DNA from: Paraspadella gotoi
Lineage: Eukaryota > Animalia > Chaetognatha
DNA length: 64,000 bases
Reading direction: 5' to 3'
Assembly: GCA_051294375.1 (NCBI GenBank)
Contig: CM119270.1
Coordinates: forward strand, 2,232,388 to 2,296,387
Part shown: piece after piece, positions 2,949-61,450 of the stretch
How the letters are laid out: each line of letters opens with the position of its first letter
Position numbering within the stretch: the stretch's first letter is position 1
Program-made: the position numbers and the translations under genes
Notes under the pieces: model-generated
Told to the model about the DNA's origin: nothing
What the model saw: the letters and a program-made list of their open reading frames with translations, nothing else
Database searches by the model: none

Positions 2949-23766
<20,818 letters not shown>

Positions 23767-24231: not shown

Positions 24232-24385
24232 TGAGACAGCATGTCCTGAGCTTTGGATCTGGCAGCAGGTCCTTAGCAGGGGGGGTTACCCGGTCCATCA
24301 CCCTGTGTACATGACGACCTCAGGGGTCGAACCAGGGACGCACATTGGGATGGTGCATTAGGCCACTGAAACGCTGAGGCGCGGC
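24232..24385 (-). mobile_element. tRNA-derived SINE-like fragment
   Basis: Minus strand gcctcag...TTTCAGTGG (A-box-like)...GGTTCGACCC (B box)...ctgaggt, with pairing ends, followed by a GC-rich body. Confidence 0.55.
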
Positions 24386-25939: not shown

Positions 25940-27140
25940 ATAATGATGTCATTGATCTATATATAAAAAATATTGAGATTATGTCATCGTATCAAAATGA
26001 GTGACGTCATCTGTGTAACCGGAAGTGACCAGATCCGGAAGTAATTAAAACCCAAAGTGACCGGAACAGGAAGTGAGCAATCTATAAATAGAATGATGAC
26101 GTCATTATATTAGAATGTGGATGACGTCATCGTATTGGAATGATGATGACGTCATCGGTCTAAACCGGAAGTGACCGGAACCGGAAGTGACCAAAACCAG
26201 AAGTGGCCAGAACCAGAAGTGACCGGAACCGGAAGTGGCCGGAACCAGAAGTGACCGGAACCGGAAGTGGCCGGAAACGGAAGTGACCAATCTATAAATA
26301 GATTGATGTGGCCGGGTTATAGTTGAGCCACAGCGCGACGAAGACCGGACATGAGTAGAGTCACAATACTAAGACAGAAGCTTCGATAAGCATTGAAGTT
26401 TGTCACAGGGAATTTGTGGCGCGTAGTTCAATAGAGAAATATGTTTAGCATGAAGAGTAGTTTCAGATTATGTAGAATAAGTCTTCAGATTAATTAATTA
26501 AGACGTTTTTAATCGAGATTGAAATCTTTGGATTATCGCTAATTCAGAGTTCAGATCTTTGCACTACTCGAAATTTAAACTTTCTTCTTTGACGATCGAA
26601 TTCATTGAGATTAATTATTCATATCTTAGATAATTCGATGAATTGTTTTATCACATGTATTAATGTACTTGCTACATTATTGTGAGGAAATTAAAAACAA
26701 GTTCAAGCATGTTTTACCATGTATTTCATGCGTGAGTAAAAACCGAACTGATTTTTCATAGAATCAATCACAGAAGTAAACAATGGTTGATTCAGAACAA
26801 TTAACTGATTGACAGCCATCTGAGGGGGAAACAGTTATTTGGGAAAAACAAAAGGCATCGAATATCTCTGTTTCAATTCATTAGATCGAGTTTGAGATCG
26901 ATTTATTTCAGGAGCAGGTTTAGCGCTGGGCTATAACTCACTGCTTCTCGATCTCTGATTTCAGGTTCGAATCCTGTTAGGGGCGATCTATTTATAAAAT
27001 AATAGGTCGATCAGCGATCTTTATTGATGACGTCATCGTATTATCTATAAATAGATTGATGACGTCATCAGATTGGAATGTTGATGACGTCATCAGATTG
27101 GAATGTTGATGACGTCATCACTCTAAACCGGAAGTTGGCT
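25940..27140. repeat. Repeat element with arrays of ACCGGAAGTG and GATGACGTCATC units; possibly Helitron-derived
   Basis: Units seen directly at 26000-26290 and 27025-27135; TCTATATATA near 25956 resembles a Helitron 5' end, but no 3' end was found. Confidence 0.5.
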
Positions 27141-30976: not shown

Positions 30977-32150
30977 AGTTAGAGTTACGCTTACGCTACC
31001 TATATTCAAAAAATTAAATTTTTCTTTTCAGTATTTTCCATACAGTAAATATTTCAAAAAGCCTTGTTTTTTGGTATCAAATTCGCTATTATTTTTCGGC
31101 CGATAGAGAAATAAAAATTTCGTCGAATACTGCTAATCCCTACCTTAGAGAGTTCTATTTGTATAACCAAATCTTACTTTCTTATAAAATCTTATTAGAA
31201 TTTGTAGAGTAATTTGGTCAGGGACGATTTGACTTAAAAAAATCTAATAATTTTTAATTTGAAGTCTTTCATAATCATAATTTTTTAACCTTATTTATAA
31301 ACTACTACAAAAAACTTAGTAATAAGGTTAGTAGTAACTTTATTTTGATTAATTAAAGTATGCCAGCTGAATAACAGCTCATTTTTTCCCAAAATCTGAC
31401 GTGGAAAATCCATAAAGAGCATTTGGGGATATTTTTTAATGTGATATTCGTTTTCTCCACAAAATTTGGCACAAGAAACTTTGCAGGTATCAGGAACTTT
31501 CAAAAATGCATGATTTTTCTGGGAGCTCTACTCCGCACTAGCATCAAAATACAAGGAGCTGAATTTTATGAAATTGGTACAACCAATATAAAAATTATCC
31601 ATTCACTATCTTGCCCCTGACTTTGGACAGGCTTTGGTGGTTTAAGGCCTCCATCACTCTTACAAGATAATGACATAGCAGGAATATTAGAATAAATTTA
31701 AAAAAAAATTATTTGAATTATCAAACAAGGATATTTAAATATGATATAGTATGAATATTGAATAACTAGTATAAAAATATTATTTATATTGTTTCAGGAA
31801 TAGAATAGTAAAATATAATATATTTATAGTAATATTCTTATAAAATATTAAATTTTAAAAATAATTTTTTTTAAAGCTTTTAATAAAAATTCAGATTCTT
31901 CATAAAAAGTTGAATCAAAAATATAAAATATATTATTAAAAATTCGATCATTTTCAGCATTTAAAATAGAAAAATAATAAAAATTTATAACTTTTTTATT
32001 CTCTGTAATAAAAACTTATATATATTAAAACGTTTTAATTATTTTTTATGATCTAAATATTGTATTAATCCTTTCTTTTGTTGTTTGTTGAGATTAATTA
32101 AAAACGAAATATTTTCGTGGAACAACAATAAAGTTTTTTATTAATTTTAG

Positions 32151-33127: not shown

Positions 33128-33526
33128 TGAAGAGACAGTGATAATTGTTATGTGACAGAACCATTCAATATAAGCTTTGGATCAGGCTGTAACACCATGT
33201 TACAGGCGGGTTAAGCGCCCCGTCCCCCTTAACTGCAAGGCGGCCACCGGGCTAGAACCGCGGAACTTTGGGTTGGGAGGCGAATGACTTGCCTCCGGCA
33301 CCAATGGCCGCTGATGAACGGTTGGTGGATTTTAGTCAACCATACATCCCCCCCTCCCGTAGGGAGAAGTCTGATGTGTCTCTTCAGTGAATTGTTGTTG
33401 TTGGTAGAAAATGTGTCACCAAGTTGAGGCATGTCGCCTGATGTGTTGTTGGCGGAAAGTGCATCGCCAGGTTGAGGCATGTCGCCTGAAAGTGTTGTTG
33501 TTGCTGTTGTGTTCGGAAGTCGGGCT
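33128..33526 (-). mobile_element. Truncated copy of the tRNA-LTR TRIM (3' LTR 33128-33346, PPT, internal region, partial PBS)
   Basis: Reverse complement matches 50115-50524; PPT seen as tccccccctccc at 33347-33358. Confidence 0.88.
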
Positions 33527-36096: not shown

Positions 36097-36315
36097 TGAA
36101 GAGACAGTGATTATTGATATATGTTAATGACAGAAGCAGTCCCTGAGCTTCGGATCAGGCTGTAACACCATGTTACAGGCAGGTTAAGCGCCCCGTCCCT
36201 CTTAACTGCCAGACGACCACCGGGCTAGAACCCCGGACCTTTGGTTGGAGGCGAATGACTTGCCTCCGGCACCAATGGCCGCTGATGAACGGTTGGTGGA
36301 TTTTAGTCCACCATA
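36097..36315 (-). mobile_element. Solo LTR of the tRNA-LTR TRIM
   Basis: Matches LTR 50294-50524; flanked by AGAC on both sides (36093-36096, 36316-36319). Confidence 0.88.
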
Positions 36316-44476: not shown

Positions 44477-45304
44477 NNNNNNNNNNNNNNNNNNNNNNNN
44501 NTATAGCGTTCATACAAGGATATCTTCTGCCCTCGCTATCTCAACACATCGTAACTTTAACCTTTTTACATTATTCATCTATCTATTTTTTTTTTTAAAT
44601 CGATTTTTTTCAAAAATAATTTTCTCCTTAAAGATTTAATAGTAAAAGTTTTTCGATTGATCTGAAACTTAAAGACTGTTAATTTGAATGAAAATATTAC
44701 CTTCTGGTGACCTGAATTGACCTCGGTCAATTAACTTACCCTCGTCGCAAAAATACAACTCACCAAACAATATGAAACCTAACGTCTTTGTTCTCGTCGT
44801 CGTCGGTCAACTCTCTCTCTCTCTCTCCATCCTTTATATTTTGAAAAATCTGGTTTTTTTCTCTCTCAAAAATAACGTCGTTTTAACCTTTTATTATTCG
44901 TTTTGTCTACAATTAATTTTGCCTCAAGTATTTTCGTCTATTTTTATTATTGTTAGTACGTTGTAATAACGTATACATTTCTCAATTGTAAATATTGTTT
45001 TTTATTGTAAGTTAATATAATTAATTAAAATTAATCAACGACTCTTCTTAATAACGAGGGTTTTCCAAAGTGGTAAGCCCGACTAAAAAATCGCAACCTG
45101 GCTGACCAACGGGAATCTCGAAGCAACATCCTATCTCCTAATCTCATCGTCAAATCGGAGCGCATCCGCAGTCGCAGCCCAATTCAAAGGAGATTTGGCC
45201 CACCGACTCTTCACGAACAACTTCACATAGATCGTGCGACCTCGCCCTTTAGGTTTGACTGCGCGACTTCCAACTCCTCCACTGTTTCAACATCCGCCAG
45301 CGAC

Positions 45305-46460
45305 ATGTCGGCCAATGAAGAAACCGTGGCCAAACAGCCCATCGACATGGACTCTGTCAAGGACATGATGAAGCACCTTGCTCAGATGACAGAGAACTTC
45401 AACAGCCTCCTGAACGAGATGAGTCAAATGAGGAATGAGCATCGACTTTTGGCTGATAGGATGACCCACCATATCGCCAGCGTAAATCAGCAACAGCAGG
45501 TCATCCACAACCTCCAAGAAGTAACTTCGCCACTCAACCCTGAGGCATCCATTTTCAGGCCGCCAATCTCCGTGGAAATGGAATCAATTCCAGAGCAACC
45601 TCGCCCACCGAGGATGCCAAAATTGCCGACCTTCGACCCAAGGACCCTGAGCTTTGGCTCAGCATCGTTGATGCCGCCTACATCAACTGCAATGTCACCA
45701 ATCTACAAGAAAAAAAATGTCATCTCATTGCTGCCATCCCTGTTGAACATCGTCAACTCTTCAGGGATTTTATGACCGACACCACAGGAGATGACAAATA
45801 CAACTATGAATCCTTCAAAGTCGCCATCAAGGAGGCCTTCGGGGAGAATAAGTCCCAGCGCATCGCCCGCTTTATGGCATCTTCCACCCTCAATGGGAGG
45901 AATCCGACGCAGCTTGTCAAGGCAATGAGGGCGACCGCTAAGGATCTCACCATGGACGACATCATCCGTCATAAATTGTCCAATGCCCTCCCTTCAACCA
46001 TCCGCAATGTTGTCTTCAAGGACAACAAATCAATTGACGACATCGCGAAGGAGGCTGACGCCTTTTTCACCACTGCCGGGACACCCATTGAACAAGCCAA
46101 AACAGCGCCAGTGTGCCACATCTCTCAGGAAAGTGATCTTGAGACTTTCGATGCCTGCGACCAAATTCAAGAGGATGAAACTCTGCCAGCACCCTCCTAT
46201 GCGCAGGTGTGTGCGGCCACGCGCAACTTTCAAGTAAGAAAGCCGGCTCCAGCATATAAGGCCCAGAATAGAAACACCAAATTTACTGCTCGCGCCTCTT
46301 TCCCTTTTGAGCCTCATTAAAGACTGTTTCTAACGGAAAAACCATCTGTGGATATCATCGTCGATTTGGTGACCGTGCCATAAACTGCCAAAACGGGTGT
46401 GAGCATCGGGGAAACGGAACGGCGGCAGCCGTCAATAAACGCCGCTGCCGGCGATCCTGA
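45305..46460 (+). pseudogene. Gypsy gag, frameshifted near 45640 and 46310
   Basis: ORFs 45305-45775 and 45772-46320 plus the CHCC knuckle join into one gag-like peptide after two frame corrections. Confidence 0.82.
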
Positions 46461-46506
46461 AGCTCTCCTTCACGTCCGCGACCACATCAATGGCCTCACA
46501 TGGGTT

Positions 46507-46956
46507 GTGTAGCATCAGCAAGGGCTTGCGAAAGCCTTCACAGCATCATTGCAGCGGTTGGCCCTCATGGAATCGACTTTGATGCAATGGCGAATGACCA
46601 ACAAAATGATGCTGATGTGAAAAAACTACTCGACAATCCACTTACTGGAATTCGTTTCAAAGTTGTCAAAATTGGTGAAGCTGATCTCATCTGCGATATC
46701 AGCAGTGGTCGCGCGCGCCCAATTGTTCCAAAAAAATGGCGCCGCCACGTTTTTGACGTCATTCACGGCCTCGCCCATCCAGGTGTTCGCGCCACAAAAA
46801 AACTAATAACGCAAAAATTTGTTTGGCCTTCGGCATCATCCGACGCTGCAGAATGGAGCCGCACGTGCATAACGTGCCAACGCACTAAAGTACAGGAACA
46901 CGTCCGTGCCCCTCTCCAAGCTTTCGAGACACCGGAGAAACGTTTCCAACACGTCC
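46507..46956 (+). pseudogene. Gypsy integrase N-terminal HHCC zinc-binding region, truncated before the DDE core
   Basis: LICDISSGRARPIVPKKWRRHVFDVIHGLAHPGVRATKKLITQKFVWP...CITCQRTKV...PEKRFQHV. Confidence 0.9.
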
Positions 46957-47044
46957 TATTGTAAGTTAATATAATTAATTAAAATTAATCACGACTCTTC
47001 TTAATAACGAGGGTTTTCCAAAAACCTATCTTTAAAATATAAAG

Positions 47045-47760
47045 NNNNNNNNNNNNNNNNNNNNNNNNNNNNNNNNNNNNNNNNNNNNNNNNNNNNNNNN
47101 NNNNNNNNNNNNNNNNNNNNNNNNNNNNNNNNNNNNNNNNNNNNNNNNNNNNNNNNNNNNNNNNNNNNNNNNNNNNNNNNNNNNNNNNNNNNNNNNNNNN
47201 NNNNNNNNNNNNNNNNNNNNNNNNNNNNNNNNNNNNNNNNNNNNNNNNNNNNNNNNNNNNNNNNNNNNNNNNNNNNNNNNNNNNNNNNNNNNNNNNNNNN
47301 NNNNNNNNNNNNNNNNNNNNNNNNNNNNNNNNNNNNNNNNNNNNNNNNNNNNNNNNNNNNNNNNNNNNNNNNNNNNNNNNNNNNNNNNNNNNNNNNNNNN
47401 NNNNNNNNNNNNNNNNNNNNNNNNNNNNNNNNNNNNNNNNNNNNNNNNNNNNNNNNNNNNNNNNNNNNNNNNNNNNNNNNNNNNNNNNNNNNNNNNNNNN
47501 NNNNNNNNNNNNNNNNNNNNNNNNNNNNNNNNNNNNNNNNNNNNNNNNNNNNNNNNNNNNNNNNNNNNNNNNNNNNNNNNNNNNNNNNNNNNNNNNNNNN
47601 NNNNNNNNNNNNNNNNNNNNNNNNNNNNNNNNNNNNNNNNNNNNNNNNNNNNNNNNNNNNNNNNNNNNNNNNNNNNNNNNNNNNNNNNNNNNNNNNNNNN
47701 NNNNNNNNNNNNNNNNNNNNNNNNNNNNNNNNNNNNNNNNNNNNNNNNNNNNNNNNNNNN
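47045..47760. other. Assembly gap between Gypsy fragments
   Basis: Run of N. Confidence 1.
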
Positions 47761-48105
47761 ACACACGCATCCATATTGATCTTGTGTGGCCCCAACTTCC
47801 AGAATCAGCGCGGCCACACCTACTTACTCACATGCATTCGACCGTTTTACGCGAATGGCGAAGCGATTCCACTCAGAAGAACAATTTTCGCTGCCGGCCA
47901 ATGTCGCGTCAACTTTCTCCCATGGTTCGGTCGCTGTGCAGAGCCGACTATTGCGGCGTCCCAATAATGACAGTTACTCACTTTCCGGCGACGTGGAGCT
48001 CAGTTGAGTCATTGCCCTCCGAGTTAGTGGGCAGGGCTGCAAAAACCTTGTGTTCTGTCTTGTACTTTGTTTGGATATCGGGCCCTCCGCGAACAAAACA
48101 CATGT
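47761..48105 (+). pseudogene. Gypsy integrase catalytic-core fragment, heavily frameshifted
   Basis: Piecewise translation gives IHIDLV(GP), GHTYLLTCI, DRFTR, EAIPL, ANVASTF, (D)RGAQ. Confidence 0.75.
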
Positions 48106-49876
48106 AGATATTTTGATTGTACAGTTTTTTATTGGGGTTTGAAAATGGGTATTTTTTTCTCTTTTTGACAATTTCAAAATGTCGTATCTCGGCCTTGGAT
48201 GATCTAATTTACAAATATATATATATATATATATATTTAGAATCCTTGTCTTAACCTCTTTTTATAATAATAACAAATATTGAAATTTTATAAAGTATTA
48301 ATAAATACCTTTTTAAAGTAATATCTTAAAATTAATATCAATTTGAAAATAAAGTTAAAAATTTTCCAAAATAAGCTTAAGTTAAAGCTTATCACGGTTC
48401 TTTTTATAGGAGGAAAAAGAAAATGGAAATATACCATCTCTGGAATGATAAAAACCTGAAAAGTTGCTGTCTGGACAAGAGCTTAGGCTAAGTCGAAAAA
48501 TTTTTCCAAACTCAGTTTTTTTTAAATTGCAGTTGAAGTTGGTAAGTTAATTTTTGAGAAAATTTGATAACTTTTGTACTAATTTTGCAGAATATAGACT
48601 CAATTCAAACATCTATATGTCAAACGATATCAGTATACCGAGAGCTTTATTTTAAGACCACTCTCAACTTTCTCCGACTTTTGGTTAAAAAGTTATTAAT
48701 CAAAATATATTATTTTTTCTTTAAAAAAGTAATGGAATGGTGAGTATTATTGAGAATATAATAAGACTTTAATCTGAAAAATTGAGGATACCAACGAGTT
48801 ATATAGACAGTCTTCTTTCAATTAATTCATAAATAAAATTTTTCTTCAAGCTTAAATATAGGTACATCATCCCCCCAAAAAATTAAAAAAATATAAATTA
48901 AATTTCTAAATAATTTACCATAATAATTTTCTATAATTTTACTTAATATATATGGACTAGAAACTATAGGATGTGACCTTCATTTTGAGCCTATTGCCAA
49001 CTCTTTACGATAAATATTTATTGAGATACTACCAAAGAAAGCCCCAAAAATCTTTAAAAAACATAATTTTTAATTTATTTAAGTCATATCTCAGTGCATA
49101 TATAACTTATTTTAAGTCAAATCATTTTATTCAGCAGATTAAAGTGTAAGGCACATATTAAATACCATTAGTTGTATTATTTTATCATAATTTAATCAGG
49201 ACACTTAATTTTCAGACAATTTTTACCAAATTTACATATACTTTTGGTTTTTACAGCAACAATGTACTACAACAGGTAAATAAAAATTGATGATAAAATA
49301 TGTAAGCCAAAAGACCTTAGAATGTATTATATAGTTTTAAAAATTTTTCTCATAAAGATTTAATGATATAAGGACAATAAAAAAAAAATTATATATATAA
49401 ATTAAAGATTGAAGAAAAATCATGATATTACAGTTAGTTTTTTATGATTATTGTAGTGCTTGTAGTAGTAGTCGTTGTAGTAGGGGTCTCAGTGATTGAG
49501 GTTTTTGCGTGTTTGGTGTGGGAATAATTTTTTTTGGTCATTATAATTGTTGTGGTCAATATTGTTATCATGGTTGTTATTATAATTATAATATAGTGTA
49601 AATAGATATCATATAGCAGTCATAGTAGGTGGTTGTAGCTATTATATCTGTAATAGTACTGAGAAATATGGTATGAATGTTGTGATTGTTTAGAGTGTAG
49701 GAAATATGTTTTTTGAACCAAATTTTAAAAACAATTTTTAAAATTAATTTATCCAATTGCAAAAAATTCGAATTTAAAATTTAGGGGGGATGGATAATCA
49801 GACATACAGACTTATGTTTATTTTTTCCCTCTCCCTGGTTAAAGAATATGGCTATCTTTTTATAATATAGAATCAT

Positions 49877-50524
49877 TTATGGTGGACTAAAATTCACCAA
49901 CCGTTCATCAGCGGCCATTGGTGCCAGAGCAAGTCATTCGCCTCCCAACCCAAAGGTCTGGGGTTCTAGCCCGGTGGTTGTCTGGCAGTTAAGAGGGACG
50001 GGGCGCTTAACCCGCCTGTAACATGGTGTTACAGCCTGATCCGAAGCTCAGGGACTGCTTTATATGAACGGTTCTGTCATTAACACTTATCAATAATTAC
50101 TGTCTCTTCATTGGTGAGCCCGACTTCCGAACACAACAGCAACAACAACACTTTCAGGCGACATGCCTCAACCTGGCGATGCACTTTCCGCCCACAACAC
50201 ATCAGGCGACATGCCTCAACTTGGTGACGAACTTCCACCAACAACAACAATCACTGAAGAGACGCAACAGACATCTTCCTACGGGAGGGGGGATGTATGG
50301 TGGACTAAAATCCACCAACCGTTCATCAGCGGCCATTGGTGCCGGAGGCAAGTCATTCGCCTCCCACCCAAAGGTCCGGGTTCTAGCCCGGTGGTCGTCT
50401 GGCAGTTAAGAGGGACGGGGCGCTTAATCCGCTGTAACTTGGTGTTACAGCCTGATCGAAGCTCAGGGACTGCTTATATTGAACGTTCTGTCATTAACAC
50501 TTATCAATAATTACTGTCTCTTCA
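49877..50524 (+). mobile_element. Complete miniature LTR retrotransposon (TRIM) with tRNA-derived sequence in both LTRs (Helenus/TRIMp3-like)
   Basis: 5' LTR 49877-50110, PBS TGGTGAGCCCGAC 50112-50124, ~180-bp non-coding interior, PPT GGGAGGGGGGA 50283-50293, 3' LTR TGTATGG...CTCTTCA 50294-50524, TCAT on both flanks. Confidence 0.9.
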
Positions 50525-52077
50525 TCATGATCAATAATAAAAAACTAACAATGCAATTGTTATGCACTTAAAACAATGAAAAAATATTTACCTAGTAAGG
50601 AGAAATTTAGTAAAGTAGAAAATCTTTAAATATGTAAATGAGATTATGCTTATTTTAATTTAAATTTTTGAGACCACCAGCAGATAAGGTATGCTTTGGC
50701 TATTTTATGGTTAAAAAATCAATCCAGTTCTCTGCATATTTTAGGTATAAATGACAATTGAATTTTGTTATTAAAATTTTGACCTGTGACAAAATTTTTT
50801 TCGAGATAACCGAAACTCATATATGTTGTAGAGCTACCGAAGGCCCATCTAAGACTGTAATATAAAAGCATAATATTCAATAATATAATAGTTATGACTG
50901 ATTAAAAAAATAACCCATTTAAAATATTTCCCTTAGTAAATGCTAATAAAACTGTTCAAATTTTATTCATCTTCTGACAACATCTCACAAACCCTTTTGA
51001 GTATGTATATATAAAATTTTAAAAATGTACTACTTATAATGACCAAGTTATGCAACTTTTAAATTTTTTTTTTTGGGCCTATTTTTAAGTGGTTTAGAAT
51101 TGTCCGATTTAAATTTTAACTCAATGGGCAATAGACCTATGTTGAGACTATTTTATGTTAAAATATCAGCTCATTGGACTTAAAAATAGAAGAATTATTT
51201 CATCCCTGAAAAAAGGACACTCTATGCTTCGGGTACTATAGTTTTTCGACGAATCTCAGTAGGGACAAACTCTTTTCCTTTCTATAAAAAAATATTCAAA
51301 AATAAATATTTGGGTATAGAGCCATATAAGAAATTTTTTGTACATTGAAAGTATAGTTAAAAATGCATGAATTTTCGTTTGAGCATGTTTCAATATATAC
51401 ATATAATTAAAAGAGAGAGAGAGAGACGTGACAGCCGCTGGACAGCCGCTGCAGAGAGAGATAGAGAANNNNNNNNNNNNNNNNNNNNNNNNNNNNNNNN
51501 NNNNNNNNNNNNNNNNNNNNNNNNNNNNNNNNNNNNNNNNNNNNNNNNNNNNNNNNNNNNNNNNNNNNNNNNNNNNNNNNNNNNNNNNNNNNNNNNNNNN
51601 NNNNNNNNNNNNNNNNNNNNNNNNNNNNNNNNNNNNTTCGTCCCCTGCTGATTCACACAATTTATATGTAAAAATTTAAAAAAAAAAGAGAGAGAGACAG
51701 AGAAAGAGAGAGAAAGAAGCAGGACAGATGCTGCAGAGCCAGAACTCGTTTTTAGACAAATCAGAAGAAGCAGTGACTGAGAAAAAGAGAGAGAGAGAGA
51801 GCGACATATAATTAAAAGAAAGAGAGAGAGAACGCAACATATAATTAAAAGGTTTTTGTTTTGTAAATGAAACAAACAAATACGAATATAGATATCAAAC
51901 CTGACAATTTTAAAGAACTTGATGATTAGAAGCCATATATAAATTTTCAACTCCCTATGATATCACACTTTCAGAAGCCATAATTGTAAAAAAGCGTGAC
52001 AAAGAAGGAACCCTGAATAGATTTTATTTTTGTTGAAGATGAGATTGCAGAATTTCACACAATCCGTATTTATCAAT

Positions 52078-54341: not shown

Positions 54342-55714
54342 AAGAGAGAAAGAAAGAGAATAAATCCACGAAAATCTCGGATGTAAATTTGGGATTTTGC
54401 ATTGAGAAAAAAAACGGTAAGTCCCAGCCAAACCTATAAAAGCGTAGTAGTTTTTAGTCAGATCTGCTTATCAGCAGATCCTGACTCTATAATTCACTTT
54501 GTCGGTCCGTCGGTCTGCCCCCTCAATATTGTCGGGCACTAACTTATATCATGTCAGAACATCGAATTATGATATATTATCCGTCCGTCCCACCTTAGCA
54601 AAAAACACCATTTACTCGTGATTGGATGGATGGATTTGAATGGAATTATGTGCGTGGGCAGGGAAGTGTGTGATTTAGCTGGATATAAAGTTTCGATGGA
54701 ATCGTCTGAGTGAAAATGAGTTTAAATGGAAAAAAAACAAAAAACCTGTTTCACTAATTGATTATGATTCTTTTTCCTTTTATATTAAATGTATATGCAG
54801 GATGTATTAAGAAATAGAATAATTAGTCAATTAATTAATCAATAATTAATTAATCAGTCAATCAATCCGTCCATTCGTCCCACCTTAGCAAAAAGCTCCA
54901 ATAACTCGTTATTGGCTGGTTGGATTGAAATGAAATTTTGTGTGTGGGTAGGAAAGTGTGTGATAAAGCAAGACAGATAAAAAGAGAGAGAGAGAGAGAG
55001 AGAGAGAGCGATATATTTATTAAATGGATAGATAATTTTTATATTGGTTGTACCAATTTCATATAATAATTAAAAGAGAGAGAGAGAAGCTCCACAGCCC
55101 CTTTACTCATCAAAGAATCAGCAGTACCTTTGCCGCCGGACGGAGCGCGTGCTTCTCCCAACCCAAAGGACTCTGGTTCGCGCCCTGCGCCTTTTCCATT
55201 GGTGAGAATGTAGGAATGTGAAAGAGAATGGAATTTTAGGCCGAGAAATATTATTTGACATTTTTGTAATTTACCAAATTTTTCCCACAACCTTCACTCC
55301 ACAATATATATAAAAAAATTAAAAAAAAAAAAAAAAAAAGGAGAGAGAGAGAGAGAGAGAAAGAAGTTGGACAGACGCTGCAGAGCCGGAACTCGTTTTT
55401 AGACAAGTCAGAAGAAGCAGTGACGGAGAAAAAGAGAGAGAGAGAGAGAAAGCGACATATAATTAAAAGAAAGAGAGAGAAAAAGCGACATATAATTAAA
55501 ACGTTTTTGTTTTGTAAATAAAACATAAACAAATACGAATATTGATAAGAAACATGACAATTTTAAAGATCTTGATGATTAGAAGCCCTTTATAAAATTT
55601 CAACTCCTTATGATATCACACTTTCAATAGCCATGATTGCAAAAAAGTGTGACCGAAAACTAAACCGAAACAAAATCTAGCCAGGACGGGCTTTGCCCGT
55701 CCCGGCTCAATAAA
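53968..55714 (-). mobile_element. HINE family 2 copy with ~23-bp internal tandem repeats and a nested family 1 fragment (54451-54970, +)
   Basis: Homologous to 29700-30763; terminal palindrome AGCCAGGACGGGCTTTGCCCGTCCCGGCT at 55679-55707. Confidence 0.75.
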
Positions 55715-61165: not shown

Positions 61166-61450
61166 TGTAGTCGGGCATTGCCTAGGTTCACCCCGCCTAT
61201 AAGCATGACTCTTTCAGTTGTGACCCGGTGGCTCATTGAGTAAAGCCATCAGCTCATGACCACTAGGTACCGGGTTCAATCCCAACCCGGTACCTACCCT
61301 GCGGGAAGAGTGAGGACGGCCGTAAGCCGCCTTGGGGGCGTGGCAAACCCTCAAGCCTGGTTCCAAGCCCAGGACCCGTTCCATGTCTGCTAGAGGGGGT
61401 TATAGAAGTTATGGATAGTCATCTTCAGCCCACTTAGCGCCTTATCTACA
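61166..61450 (+). mobile_element. Putative solo LTR of a second tRNA-bearing family
   Basis: TGTAG...CTACA inverted termini, GTAA on both flanks (61162-61165, 61451-61454), internal A box TGGCTCATTGAG (61229-61240) and B box GGTTCAATCCC (61273-61283). Confidence 0.7.

Follow-up and report, generated by a model that had tools for sequence, protein, structure and literature searches.

Long terminal repeat (LTR) retrozymes are non-coding elements with a self-cleaving ribozyme fold in each LTR, a primer-binding site (PBS), a polypurine tract (PPT), target-site duplications (TSDs) of 4 bp and a Ty3/Gypsy helper, and in the literature consulted they have been described from plants and with hammerhead ribozymes only (Cervera et al. 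2016, PMC4918200). Metazoan retrozymes have been described without LTR, PBS, and PPT (PMC7761336, PMC6765202), and twister ribozymes in animal retroelements were found in the literature for non-LTR elements only (PMC8501958). Helenus elements, which are miniature terminal-repeat retrotransposons (TRIMs) of the TRIMp3 group, are non-coding LTR elements below 1 kb that carry a tRNA-like segment with a GGTTC box B in each LTR, together with a Gypsy-type PBS, a PPT, and 4-bp TSDs (Kojima 2024, PMC10886601). In this work, a 64,000-nucleotide stretch from the chaetognath Paraspadella gotoi (assembly GCA_051294375.1, contig CM119270.1, positions 2,232,388 to 2,296,387 of the forward strand; called the window, with coordinates counted from its first letter) is analyzed for a 647-bp element with the layout of a Helenus TRIM. 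Judged by consensus and alignment, its LTRs carry a twister ribozyme fold of type P5, in which the two pseudoknots and every catalytic base are present and for which cleavage is predicted. The element probably moves as an animal LTR retrozyme, in which an RNA polymerase III (Pol III) transcript would be cut by two twisters to a 417-nt monomer that would be closed to a circle and mobilized by a Gypsy helper of the CsRn1 clade.

Layout of the element and the twister fold

The features of the element, all on the plus strand, are as follows.

49873..49876: left copy of the TSD, TCAT, followed by one extra T at 49877 (sequence; LTR start from contig ends)
49878..50110: 5′ LTR, 233 bp, ends TA...CA (BLAST; loose contig ends at 49878 and 50110)
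49880..49899: hairpin at the 5′ end of the LTR, with a perfect version in the 3′ LTR at 50298-50317 (sequence)
49911..49982: degenerate tRNA-like segment, in which the acceptor-like stem has 7 bp, box A (49919-49929) is weak, the anticodon position holds CCC and box B reads GGTTCTAGCCC (49962-49972); a Pol III promoter by prediction (own tRNA model, 12.9 bits, E 0.021, model positions 1-73)
49985..50058: type-P5 twister fold, with P5 49985-89/50054-58, P2 49994-96/50011-13, general base G49997 and A49998 (Rfam consensus, descriptor, alignment)
49999-50001/50041-43 and 50014-15/50046-47: twister pseudoknots PK2 and PK1, respectively (alignment)
50002-50007: self-complementary hexamer replacing P1, with the predicted cut at 50008|50009 (alignment)
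50016-23/50027-34 and 50035-39/50048-52: twister stems P3 (8 bp) and P4 (5 bp), respectively (alignment)
50112..50125: PBS of the tRNA-Trp type, TGGTGAGCCCGAC at 50112-50124, one base past the 5′ LTR (fits the CsRn1-clade PBS, PMC2582038)
50126..50282: non-coding interior with a direct repeat of about 48 bp (50155-50202/50203-50250) and the segment 50255-50263 (sequence)
50283..50295: PPT GGGAGGGGGGA at 50283-50293, then TG (sequence)
50296..50524: 3′ LTR, 229 bp, with tRNA-like segment 50329-50399 and twister 50402-50473, predicted cut 50425|50426 (BLAST, alignment, tRNA model)
50525..50528: right copy of the TSD, TCAT (sequence)

From 5′ to 3′, the 647 bp (49878-50524) read LTR, single T, PBS, 185-bp interior, PPT, TG, and LTR. 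The two LTRs are 93.7% alike by BLAST, with 6 substitutions in 227 aligned bases and 8 single-base gaps; several of these gaps and changes sit in runs of one base, and assembly error may thus account for some of the difference. A layout of LTR, PBS, interior, PPT, and LTR had been proposed in an earlier, sequence-only reading of the stretch, and it holds, with two corrections of detail: the LTR starts at 49878 and not at 49877, as the loose contig ends and a solo LTR indicate, and the PPT does not directly precede the 3′ LTR, as TG stands between them.

The twister fold starts three bases past the end of the tRNA-like segment and contains all elements of the Rfam consensus. In P5 order, these are P2′, the GA with the general base, PK2′, a linker of 6 nt, the U-A-A cut site, P2, PK1, P3 (8 bp), and P4 (5 bp) with its loop, and a P5 of 5 bp encloses them all. 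The consensus lines used were those of Rfam, obtained via phage loci that had been fetched with the rice P4/L4 motif (taken from PMC11662667). The P4 loop reads UCCGAAGC where rice has UCCCAAGC, with 7 of 8 L4 bases alike, and this loop change has its counterpart in the partner strand of PK2, where GGG has become CGG. Phage RNAs with twister-P1 scores in Rfam carry the same PK2 swap (L216, E 3e-11; L207, E 1e-8); they are two of the three loci tested. These loci came from a scan for the PK2 variant, in which a loose filter kept 8 of 120 loci and three (L207, L216, and L219, all phage contigs) looked twister-like by eye. The pairing strands CTGTAACA/TGTTACAG, previously taken for an isolated hairpin, form helix P3 of this fold instead.

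Of 117 phage loci that twister seeds had fetched, a strict descriptor of the fold, based on the Rfam consensus, matched 102. In the window it matched a single place, which is the solo LTR listed below, and among dinucleotide shuffles of the LTR it matched 1 of 193,141. When one P2 mismatch was allowed, it matched 104 of the 117 phage loci, four window places, and 19 of 175,225 shuffles, the places gained being the 5′ LTR and two unrelated loci (61166-61450 and 31609-31667). Further copies and families of interest in the window are the following.

36097..36315, minus strand: solo LTR of the element's family, exact 4-bp TSD, twister fold (36136-36209) fully paired (BLAST, sequence, descriptor)
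33128..33526, minus strand: 5′-truncated copy of the same family with its break inside the PBS, the best tRNA-model score, and a twister lacking the 3′ strands of P4 and P5 (sequence, tRNA model)
61166..61450, plus strand: solo LTR of a second family, TGTA...TACA, TSD GTAA, with tRNA-like segment 61222-61294, whose anticodon position reads CAT, and a P5 twister in which the hexamer is CGGCCG (descriptor, alignment, tRNA model)
31609..31667, minus strand: third family, a minimal P5 twister that lacks P3 and has the hexamer AGGCCT (descriptor, alignment)
24240..24367, minus strand: fourth family, decayed, a tRNA-like segment followed by a damaged P5 twister (tRNA model; twister read by eye)

By BLAST, these families are alike in little sequence, yet their twisters align in register. 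In an alignment of six rows from three families, 94.4% of the cells pair and 13 of the 27 pairs differ in both partners, with such double changes in each of the pseudoknots; none of 500 shuffles reached this level, and slid registers were 25-48% paired. Pairing amounts to 100% in PK1, 94% in PK2, 96% in P4, and 78% in P2, and the cut-site adenines, the GA, and the L4 AA are invariant in all six rows. In the third family, both pseudoknots are changed on both sides; around it, neither a tRNA-like segment nor LTR ends were seen, and it sits in AT-rich repeat DNA. The order of tRNA-like segment, then twister, is common to the first, second, and fourth families. Among 8 Rfam matches on the second-family LTR, Twister-P5 ranks first by E-value (0.41), and its 16.3 bits fall short of the gathering score of 37.6.

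The linker at the position of P1 is 6 nt long in all three intact families, namely GGCGCT, CGGCCG, and AGGCCT (the linker of the decayed fourth family, ACCGGG, holds the inner palindrome CCGG). None of the three hexamers has a predicted hairpin alone, and each is predicted to pair with itself over 6 bp at −8.3, −10.7, and −9.1 kcal/mol, respectively, as 5% of hexamers would. Two adjacent central bases switch between CG and GC from family to family, though they are unable to pair within one strand, and this pattern would therefore be best explained if the hexamers pair between two copies. In phage twisters of type P5, by comparison, P1 hairpins of 16-39 nt were present in all 18 matches listed. 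In the axolotl, hammerheads in which a palindromic tetraloop caps a single base pair show better cleavage as dimers (PMC7229834).

tRNA-like segment, element ends, and genomic context

The tRNA-like segment was assessed with our own tRNA model, which was built from the tRNA-Glu of the window and 36 phage tRNAs chosen through a single box A motif, so that the model is biased and its E-values are rough. Run without filters over all 64 kb, it returned 12 matches at E ≤ 10, in which the true tRNA-Glu scored 55.4 bits and five LTRs of two families ranked 2 to 6 at 17.2, 14.0, 12.9, 12.0, and 10.7 bits (E 5e-4 to 0.15), each over the full model span and in the register of 49911-49982. Box B (GGTTC) is good, whereas box A is degenerate, with 3 of 5 bases of TRGCY and 2 of 3 of its second part (YGG). 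Plain folding rearranges the D and anticodon arms into another hairpin. The common T/C variants at 49978 and 49981 switch a G-U to a G-C pair and back, such that the acceptor-like stem stays paired. Given this ranking and these stem-keeping variants, the segment is, on the model's terms, tRNA-derived but degenerate, with a tRNA shape that is weak yet beyond chance, and its use by Pol III is presumed. The sequence-only reading had described a tRNA-shaped segment in each LTR; its register and the CCC triplet at the anticodon position are borne out by the model, while the degeneracy of the segment qualifies the picture, and of the searches in the element, the Rfam tRNA model gave no match at E ≤ 10 and ARAGORN no call. 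A functional tRNA gene was considered for the segment and rejected. In the second family, the boxes are clearer (box A TGGCT, box B GGTTC), and that LTR has no run of four T. Such a run is likewise missing from the plus strand of the element, the first one downstream lying at 50653.

Elsewhere in the window, a tRNA-Glu(CTC) gene (18372-18443, minus strand, Rfam 59.4 bits) lies within an intron-like stretch, and lone box B-like or tRNA-like fragments at 26962-26976 and 55155-55185 (both plus strand), downstream of which no twister was seen, are possibly old pieces of short interspersed nuclear elements (SINEs).

The start of the LTR was placed at 49878 because more contigs break there and because the solo LTR reads GTCT|TATGG...CTTCA|GTCT. 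In three sequencing runs of the same organism, 98, 54, and 22 contigs leave into unrelated flanks at 49878, against 60, 24, and 12 at 49877, a count that is about what a chance T in an AT-rich flank gives; in a fourth run, 96 contigs leave at 49878, with no figure for 49877 among the rows listed. With this start, the 4-bp duplication TCAT claimed for the full copy is present, with one extra T between its left copy and the LTR. Among the three readable insertions, the TSDs of the solo LTR (GTCT) and of the second family (GTAA) are exact. The genomic copies start with TA (49878, 50296), yet PPT-TG precedes the 3′ LTR (50294-50296); the TG is likely two bases trimmed at integration, the canonical TG start having been lost. 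Non-canonical or altered LTR ends are known in the CsRn1 clade (PMC2582038).

The interior segment TGAAGAGAC (50255-50263) was rightly noted earlier as complementary to the LTR 3′ end: the duplex reaches −17.8 kcal/mol, a complementarity of at least 9 nt arose in 0.12% of 5000 base shuffles, and it is kept in the truncated copy. In both copies, the LTR end and the first PBS bases (50096-50116) are able to pair with the interior at 50240-50263, which could act as a gate on priming or packaging. The full copy contains a 115-codon ATG frame; a Pfam search at E 0.1 with its enclosing 130-aa stop-to-stop frame gave nothing, and the truncated copy differs in this frame, so the element continues to be called non-coding, as it was before. 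A conserved peptide was rejected, and an explanation as two adjacent SINEs was rejected as well, since PBS, PPT, TSD, and LTR ends speak against it.

Within the window, long matches to the element occur at three loci only, and these are the full copy, the solo LTR, and the truncated copy that had been named before. Outside of it, 4152, 15283, and 1052 contigs of same-organism runs fall on the element at depths far above the flanks, which shows a high-copy family, although contig counts and depth give no copy number; a run under another organism label has 2 contigs only and was not taken as a second host. A metagenome scan with an 18-mer of the element gave 54 loci out of 54 that match the seed and a few bases only (maximum 28 nt), taken as chance, and in a viral scan with a 16-mer of the twister all 12 matches were limited to the seed. 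Across the run contigs (among 40 of 52 variants listed), the sole variant above 15% in the twister (49985-50058) is the P3 loop at 50024, unlike U5, where several exceed 15%. The catalytic bases are unchanged among the variants listed, and the rarer twister variants consist for the most part of C>T or G>A changes at CG sites, with position 50043 in PK2 varying at 1-11%. In the LTR, too, low-frequency variants are chiefly C>T/G>A at CG sites, though the CpG ratio of the window is 1.0, which suggests methylation directed at the element. Next to the truncated copy, and ending 12 bp from it, lies a long inverted repeat (32088-32346/32866-33116, 97% complementary), either a foldback element or an assembly artefact.

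About 5 kb upstream of the element lies another retrotransposon.

45003..47995, plus strand: CsRn1-clade Gypsy relic, broken and internally deleted, with PBS 45071-45084, gag (DUF7041) 45544-46317, CHCC motif 46347-46400, and integrase H2C2 46461-46961 (Pfam, sequence)

The CHCC motif of the relic is C-X2-H-X9-C-X3-C, and its PBS at 45071 is identical to that of the element in 13 of 14 positions. The CsRn1 clade combines a tRNA-Trp PBS with 4-bp TSDs (PMC2582038, PMC3630058), and by these sequence features the relic likely marks the clade of the helper. The relic itself was rejected as a working helper, being broken and with no reverse transcriptase seen in 45003-47995. A 67-bp piece of its LTR end is repeated at 45003-45069 and 46957-47022 beside an N gap, past which integrase-like sequence resumes; the assembly around this gap may be faulty. 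Further away, exons of a tetratricopeptide repeat (TPR) gene lie at about 11240-22230 (plus strand) among microsatellite-rich introns, with a maximum identity of 59% among 150 matches listed; a word search with one of its exons found nothing. We take this gene to resemble TMTC3.

Proposed cycle and its rivals

It is fairly probable that TFIIIC and Pol III would start a transcript near 49911 that reads through both LTRs to a T-run in the flank, the first at 50653; read-through of both LTRs would follow from the lack of a run of four T in the element. Cleavage at 50008|50009 and 50425|50426 is held with good confidence for the family, the 3′ twister of the full copy being damaged. Slightly better than even is our confidence in the manner of this cleavage, in which P1 would be supplied by the hexamers of two copies as a 6-bp helix, with ribozyme halves swapped between the LTRs, such that cutting depends on a transcript with both. 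The 417-nt monomer would then be ligated to a circle and copied from a tRNA-Trp primer more than once round, as a monomer without terminal repeat would require. At its junction, the circle would match the LTR in sequence, and the predicted fold of the circular monomer has a z of −3.2 against 60 shuffles. Finally, the Gag-Pol of a CsRn1-clade Gypsy element would package, copy, and integrate the product with a 4-bp TSD, a step that we regard as quite likely. Copying of a circle is the retrozyme model published for plants (PMC4918200), and RtcB circularizes animal retrozyme monomers in vitro, while tandem twisters give circles in mammalian cells (PMC7229834). A broader idea is tentative and, in our judgment, has distinctly less than even chances: an animal radiation of Pol III-driven LTR retrozymes on obligate-dimer twisters, whose LTRs would pair by hexamers, swap halves, cut only together, excise exactly one unit, much as engineered twin-twister circular-RNA vectors do, and retrotranspose via a circle with CsRn1 Gypsy enzymes.

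Several observations weigh against this account. Every step from transcription onward, i.e., Pol III use, cleavage, dimers, and circles, is predicted. The tRNA-model scores of the LTRs lie far under that of a real tRNA, with box A being the weak part, and the missing T run is weak evidence, since 24% of shuffles also have none. In the LTRs of the element's family (element, 5′ twister, and solo LTR), Rfam finds no twister at E ≤ 10, only chance-level matches; the Rfam P5 model was built with a long P1 and no P3 (Rfam scans of the element gave no hammerhead match either). Our own model of the twister 3′ half misses the family and gives one weak match in the second family; it was made from 19 phage sequences out of 25 picked by one seed (four mis-parsed and three others out, two added) and is likely overfitted. 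The descriptor was written after the motif had been seen, and its relaxations (unpaired P1, 3-bp P2) suit the motif, while the covariation count comes from six related rows of three families and has no probability attached. For the third pair of P2, 4 of the 6 rows have an A-C mismatch. Pseudoknot-free folding favors a rival hairpin, in which PK2′ pairs with P2 over the cut site and which would block the active fold. In the full copy, the 3′ twister has one substitution and two single-base deletions, the latter absent from many run contigs, and the truncated copy's twister is broken. Other twisters are reported to do without P1 (PMC5408937, PMC11662667), so that monomers may cut without a dimer. 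Lastly, the element and the Gypsy relic share no similarity beyond the PBS.

The strongest rival, to which we assign a rather low probability, keeps the twister active as a 3′-end former on linear RNA. Only the 3′ LTR would cut, the 5′ copy being held in the competing hairpin, and an RNA from about 49911 to 50425 with a terminal repeat of about 98 nt would undergo ordinary strand transfer without a circle. Such a role would suit an element that lacks its own Pol III terminator and has a hairpin able to sequester the cut site, and twisters do trim linear retrotransposon RNAs in Schistosoma (PMC8501958). However, the same fold is present in both LTRs and nothing was found that silences the 5′ copy alone; a swapped dimer would form both active sites together, and plant LTR elements with a ribozyme per LTR make circles (PMC4918200).

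The two other rivals are each improbable. An ordinary Helenus-type TRIM could have acquired a tRNA-plus-twister cassette from a SINE-like ancestor, with a twister that is now inactive or incidental. This would agree with the proposed origin of Helenus by SINE insertion into an LTR (PMC10886601), with the failure of Rfam to detect the fold, with the damage to two of the four twister copies in the window, and with the position of the third-family twister outside an evident LTR; it is at odds with the compensatory changes in both pseudoknots between families that are otherwise little alike, and with catalytic bases that are constant among the run variants listed while U5 drifts. Equally small is the chance that the element is a twister retrozyme but not a Pol III unit, transcribed by Pol II read-through or from an LTR promoter, whose tRNA-like segment would persist for its RNA structure, serving ligase recruitment, stability, or packaging. 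Here, the degenerate box A, the refolding D and anticodon arms, and the acceptor-like stem that pairs through the T/C variants all fit, and retrozymes have been described without promoters (PMC7761336) or, in a plant retrozyme, with an LTR promoter (PMC9695139). The invariants of box B are kept, on the other hand, the corresponding place in the second family holds a well-formed box A (TGGCT) and box B (GGTTC), and neither family's LTR contains a run of four T.

Comparison with known systems

The element fits the published definition of Helenus (PMC10886601), as the sequence-only reading had suggested, although that reading missed the twister past the tRNA-like segment, which makes a retrozyme-like cycle, and not that of an ordinary TRIM, the likely mechanism. 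The nearest Helenus families are Helenus-2_SyJa and Helenus-2_SyUm of Synergus wasps, both Trp-primed; the PBS of the element agrees with those of Helenus-2_SyJa and Gypsy-32_NVi in 12 of 13 positions. Differences from Helenus are the twister after the tRNA-like part, the weaker box A, the TA start of the LTR, and the lack, past the tRNA-like part, of the T-run that many of the Helenus LTRs examined have. In the Helenus consensus file (Data S1), six motifs of the element gave no match, with 48 for a positive control, although line breaks can hide a motif. This agrees with the earlier suggestion of a possibly separate lineage, and by its motifs the element is likely a family separate from described Helenus. 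The available text of PMC10886601 contains no mention of twisters and claims no ribozyme, and the twister loop motifs of the window are absent from its consensus file. In the LTRs of Helenus-2_SyJa and Helenus-2_SyUm, a hammerhead-like core can be read by eye past the tRNA box, on which the same text is silent. The CsRn1 clade (PMC2582038) shares the tRNA-Trp PBS, the 4-bp TSD, and the tolerance of non-canonical LTR ends, but its members are autonomous and coding; it is the likely helper and no kin in LTR sequence.

As a ribozyme, the fold agrees with type-P5 twisters (Rfam RF02684; class RF03160) in element order, cut site, general acid and base, both pseudoknots, P4, and L4, and it differs in the reduction of P1 to a self-complementary hexamer, the presence of P3, the 3-bp P2, and scores below the Rfam thresholds. 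The available part of PMC10085705 reports no further twister permutations. The twister variants at the 5′ end of Perere-3, an RTE element of Schistosoma mansoni (PMC8501958), are likewise poor-P1 twisters in an animal retrotransposon, but each is a single ribozyme in a non-LTR coding element without an LTR pair, and the available text does not mention palindromes or dimers. Closer to the dimer idea are the minimal dimeric hammerheads known from amphibian retrozymes (PMC7229834) and Penelope-like elements, in which one base pair and a palindromic tetraloop become an inter-copy helix; the ribozyme class differs, and in the element the partners would be the LTR pair of a single transcript. The literature search, judged mostly from listings and not extending to subscription papers, Repbase, Dfam, or the supplementary twister tables of PMC11662667, turned up neither an LTR with a twister nor twisters that dimerize through a palindrome.

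If the proposed cycle is true, it gives twisters a concrete job, and a twister acting as a dimer joined by a palindrome would be a compact generator of circular RNA in nature. It would also suggest a way for a Pol III-type LTR element to set its RNA ends without a terminator or R region, a matter left open in the available text of PMC10886601.

With plant LTR retrozymes (PMC4918200), the element has in common its non-coding nature, a ribozyme fold in each LTR, the PBS, the PPT, the 4-bp TSD, a helper of the Ty3/Gypsy type, which is the likely one here, and a structured monomer between the predicted cuts. It differs in its animal host, in having a twister and not a type III hammerhead, in its tRNA-Trp instead of tRNA-Met primer, and in the tRNA-like segment of its LTRs; the plant monomers measure 600-1000 nt and their circles have been shown, whereas 417 nt and circles are predicted here. 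Judged by its features, the element would work like a plant LTR retrozyme and stands outside that group by its ribozyme class, and, if this is true, the LTR retrozyme design extends to animals and to a second ribozyme class.

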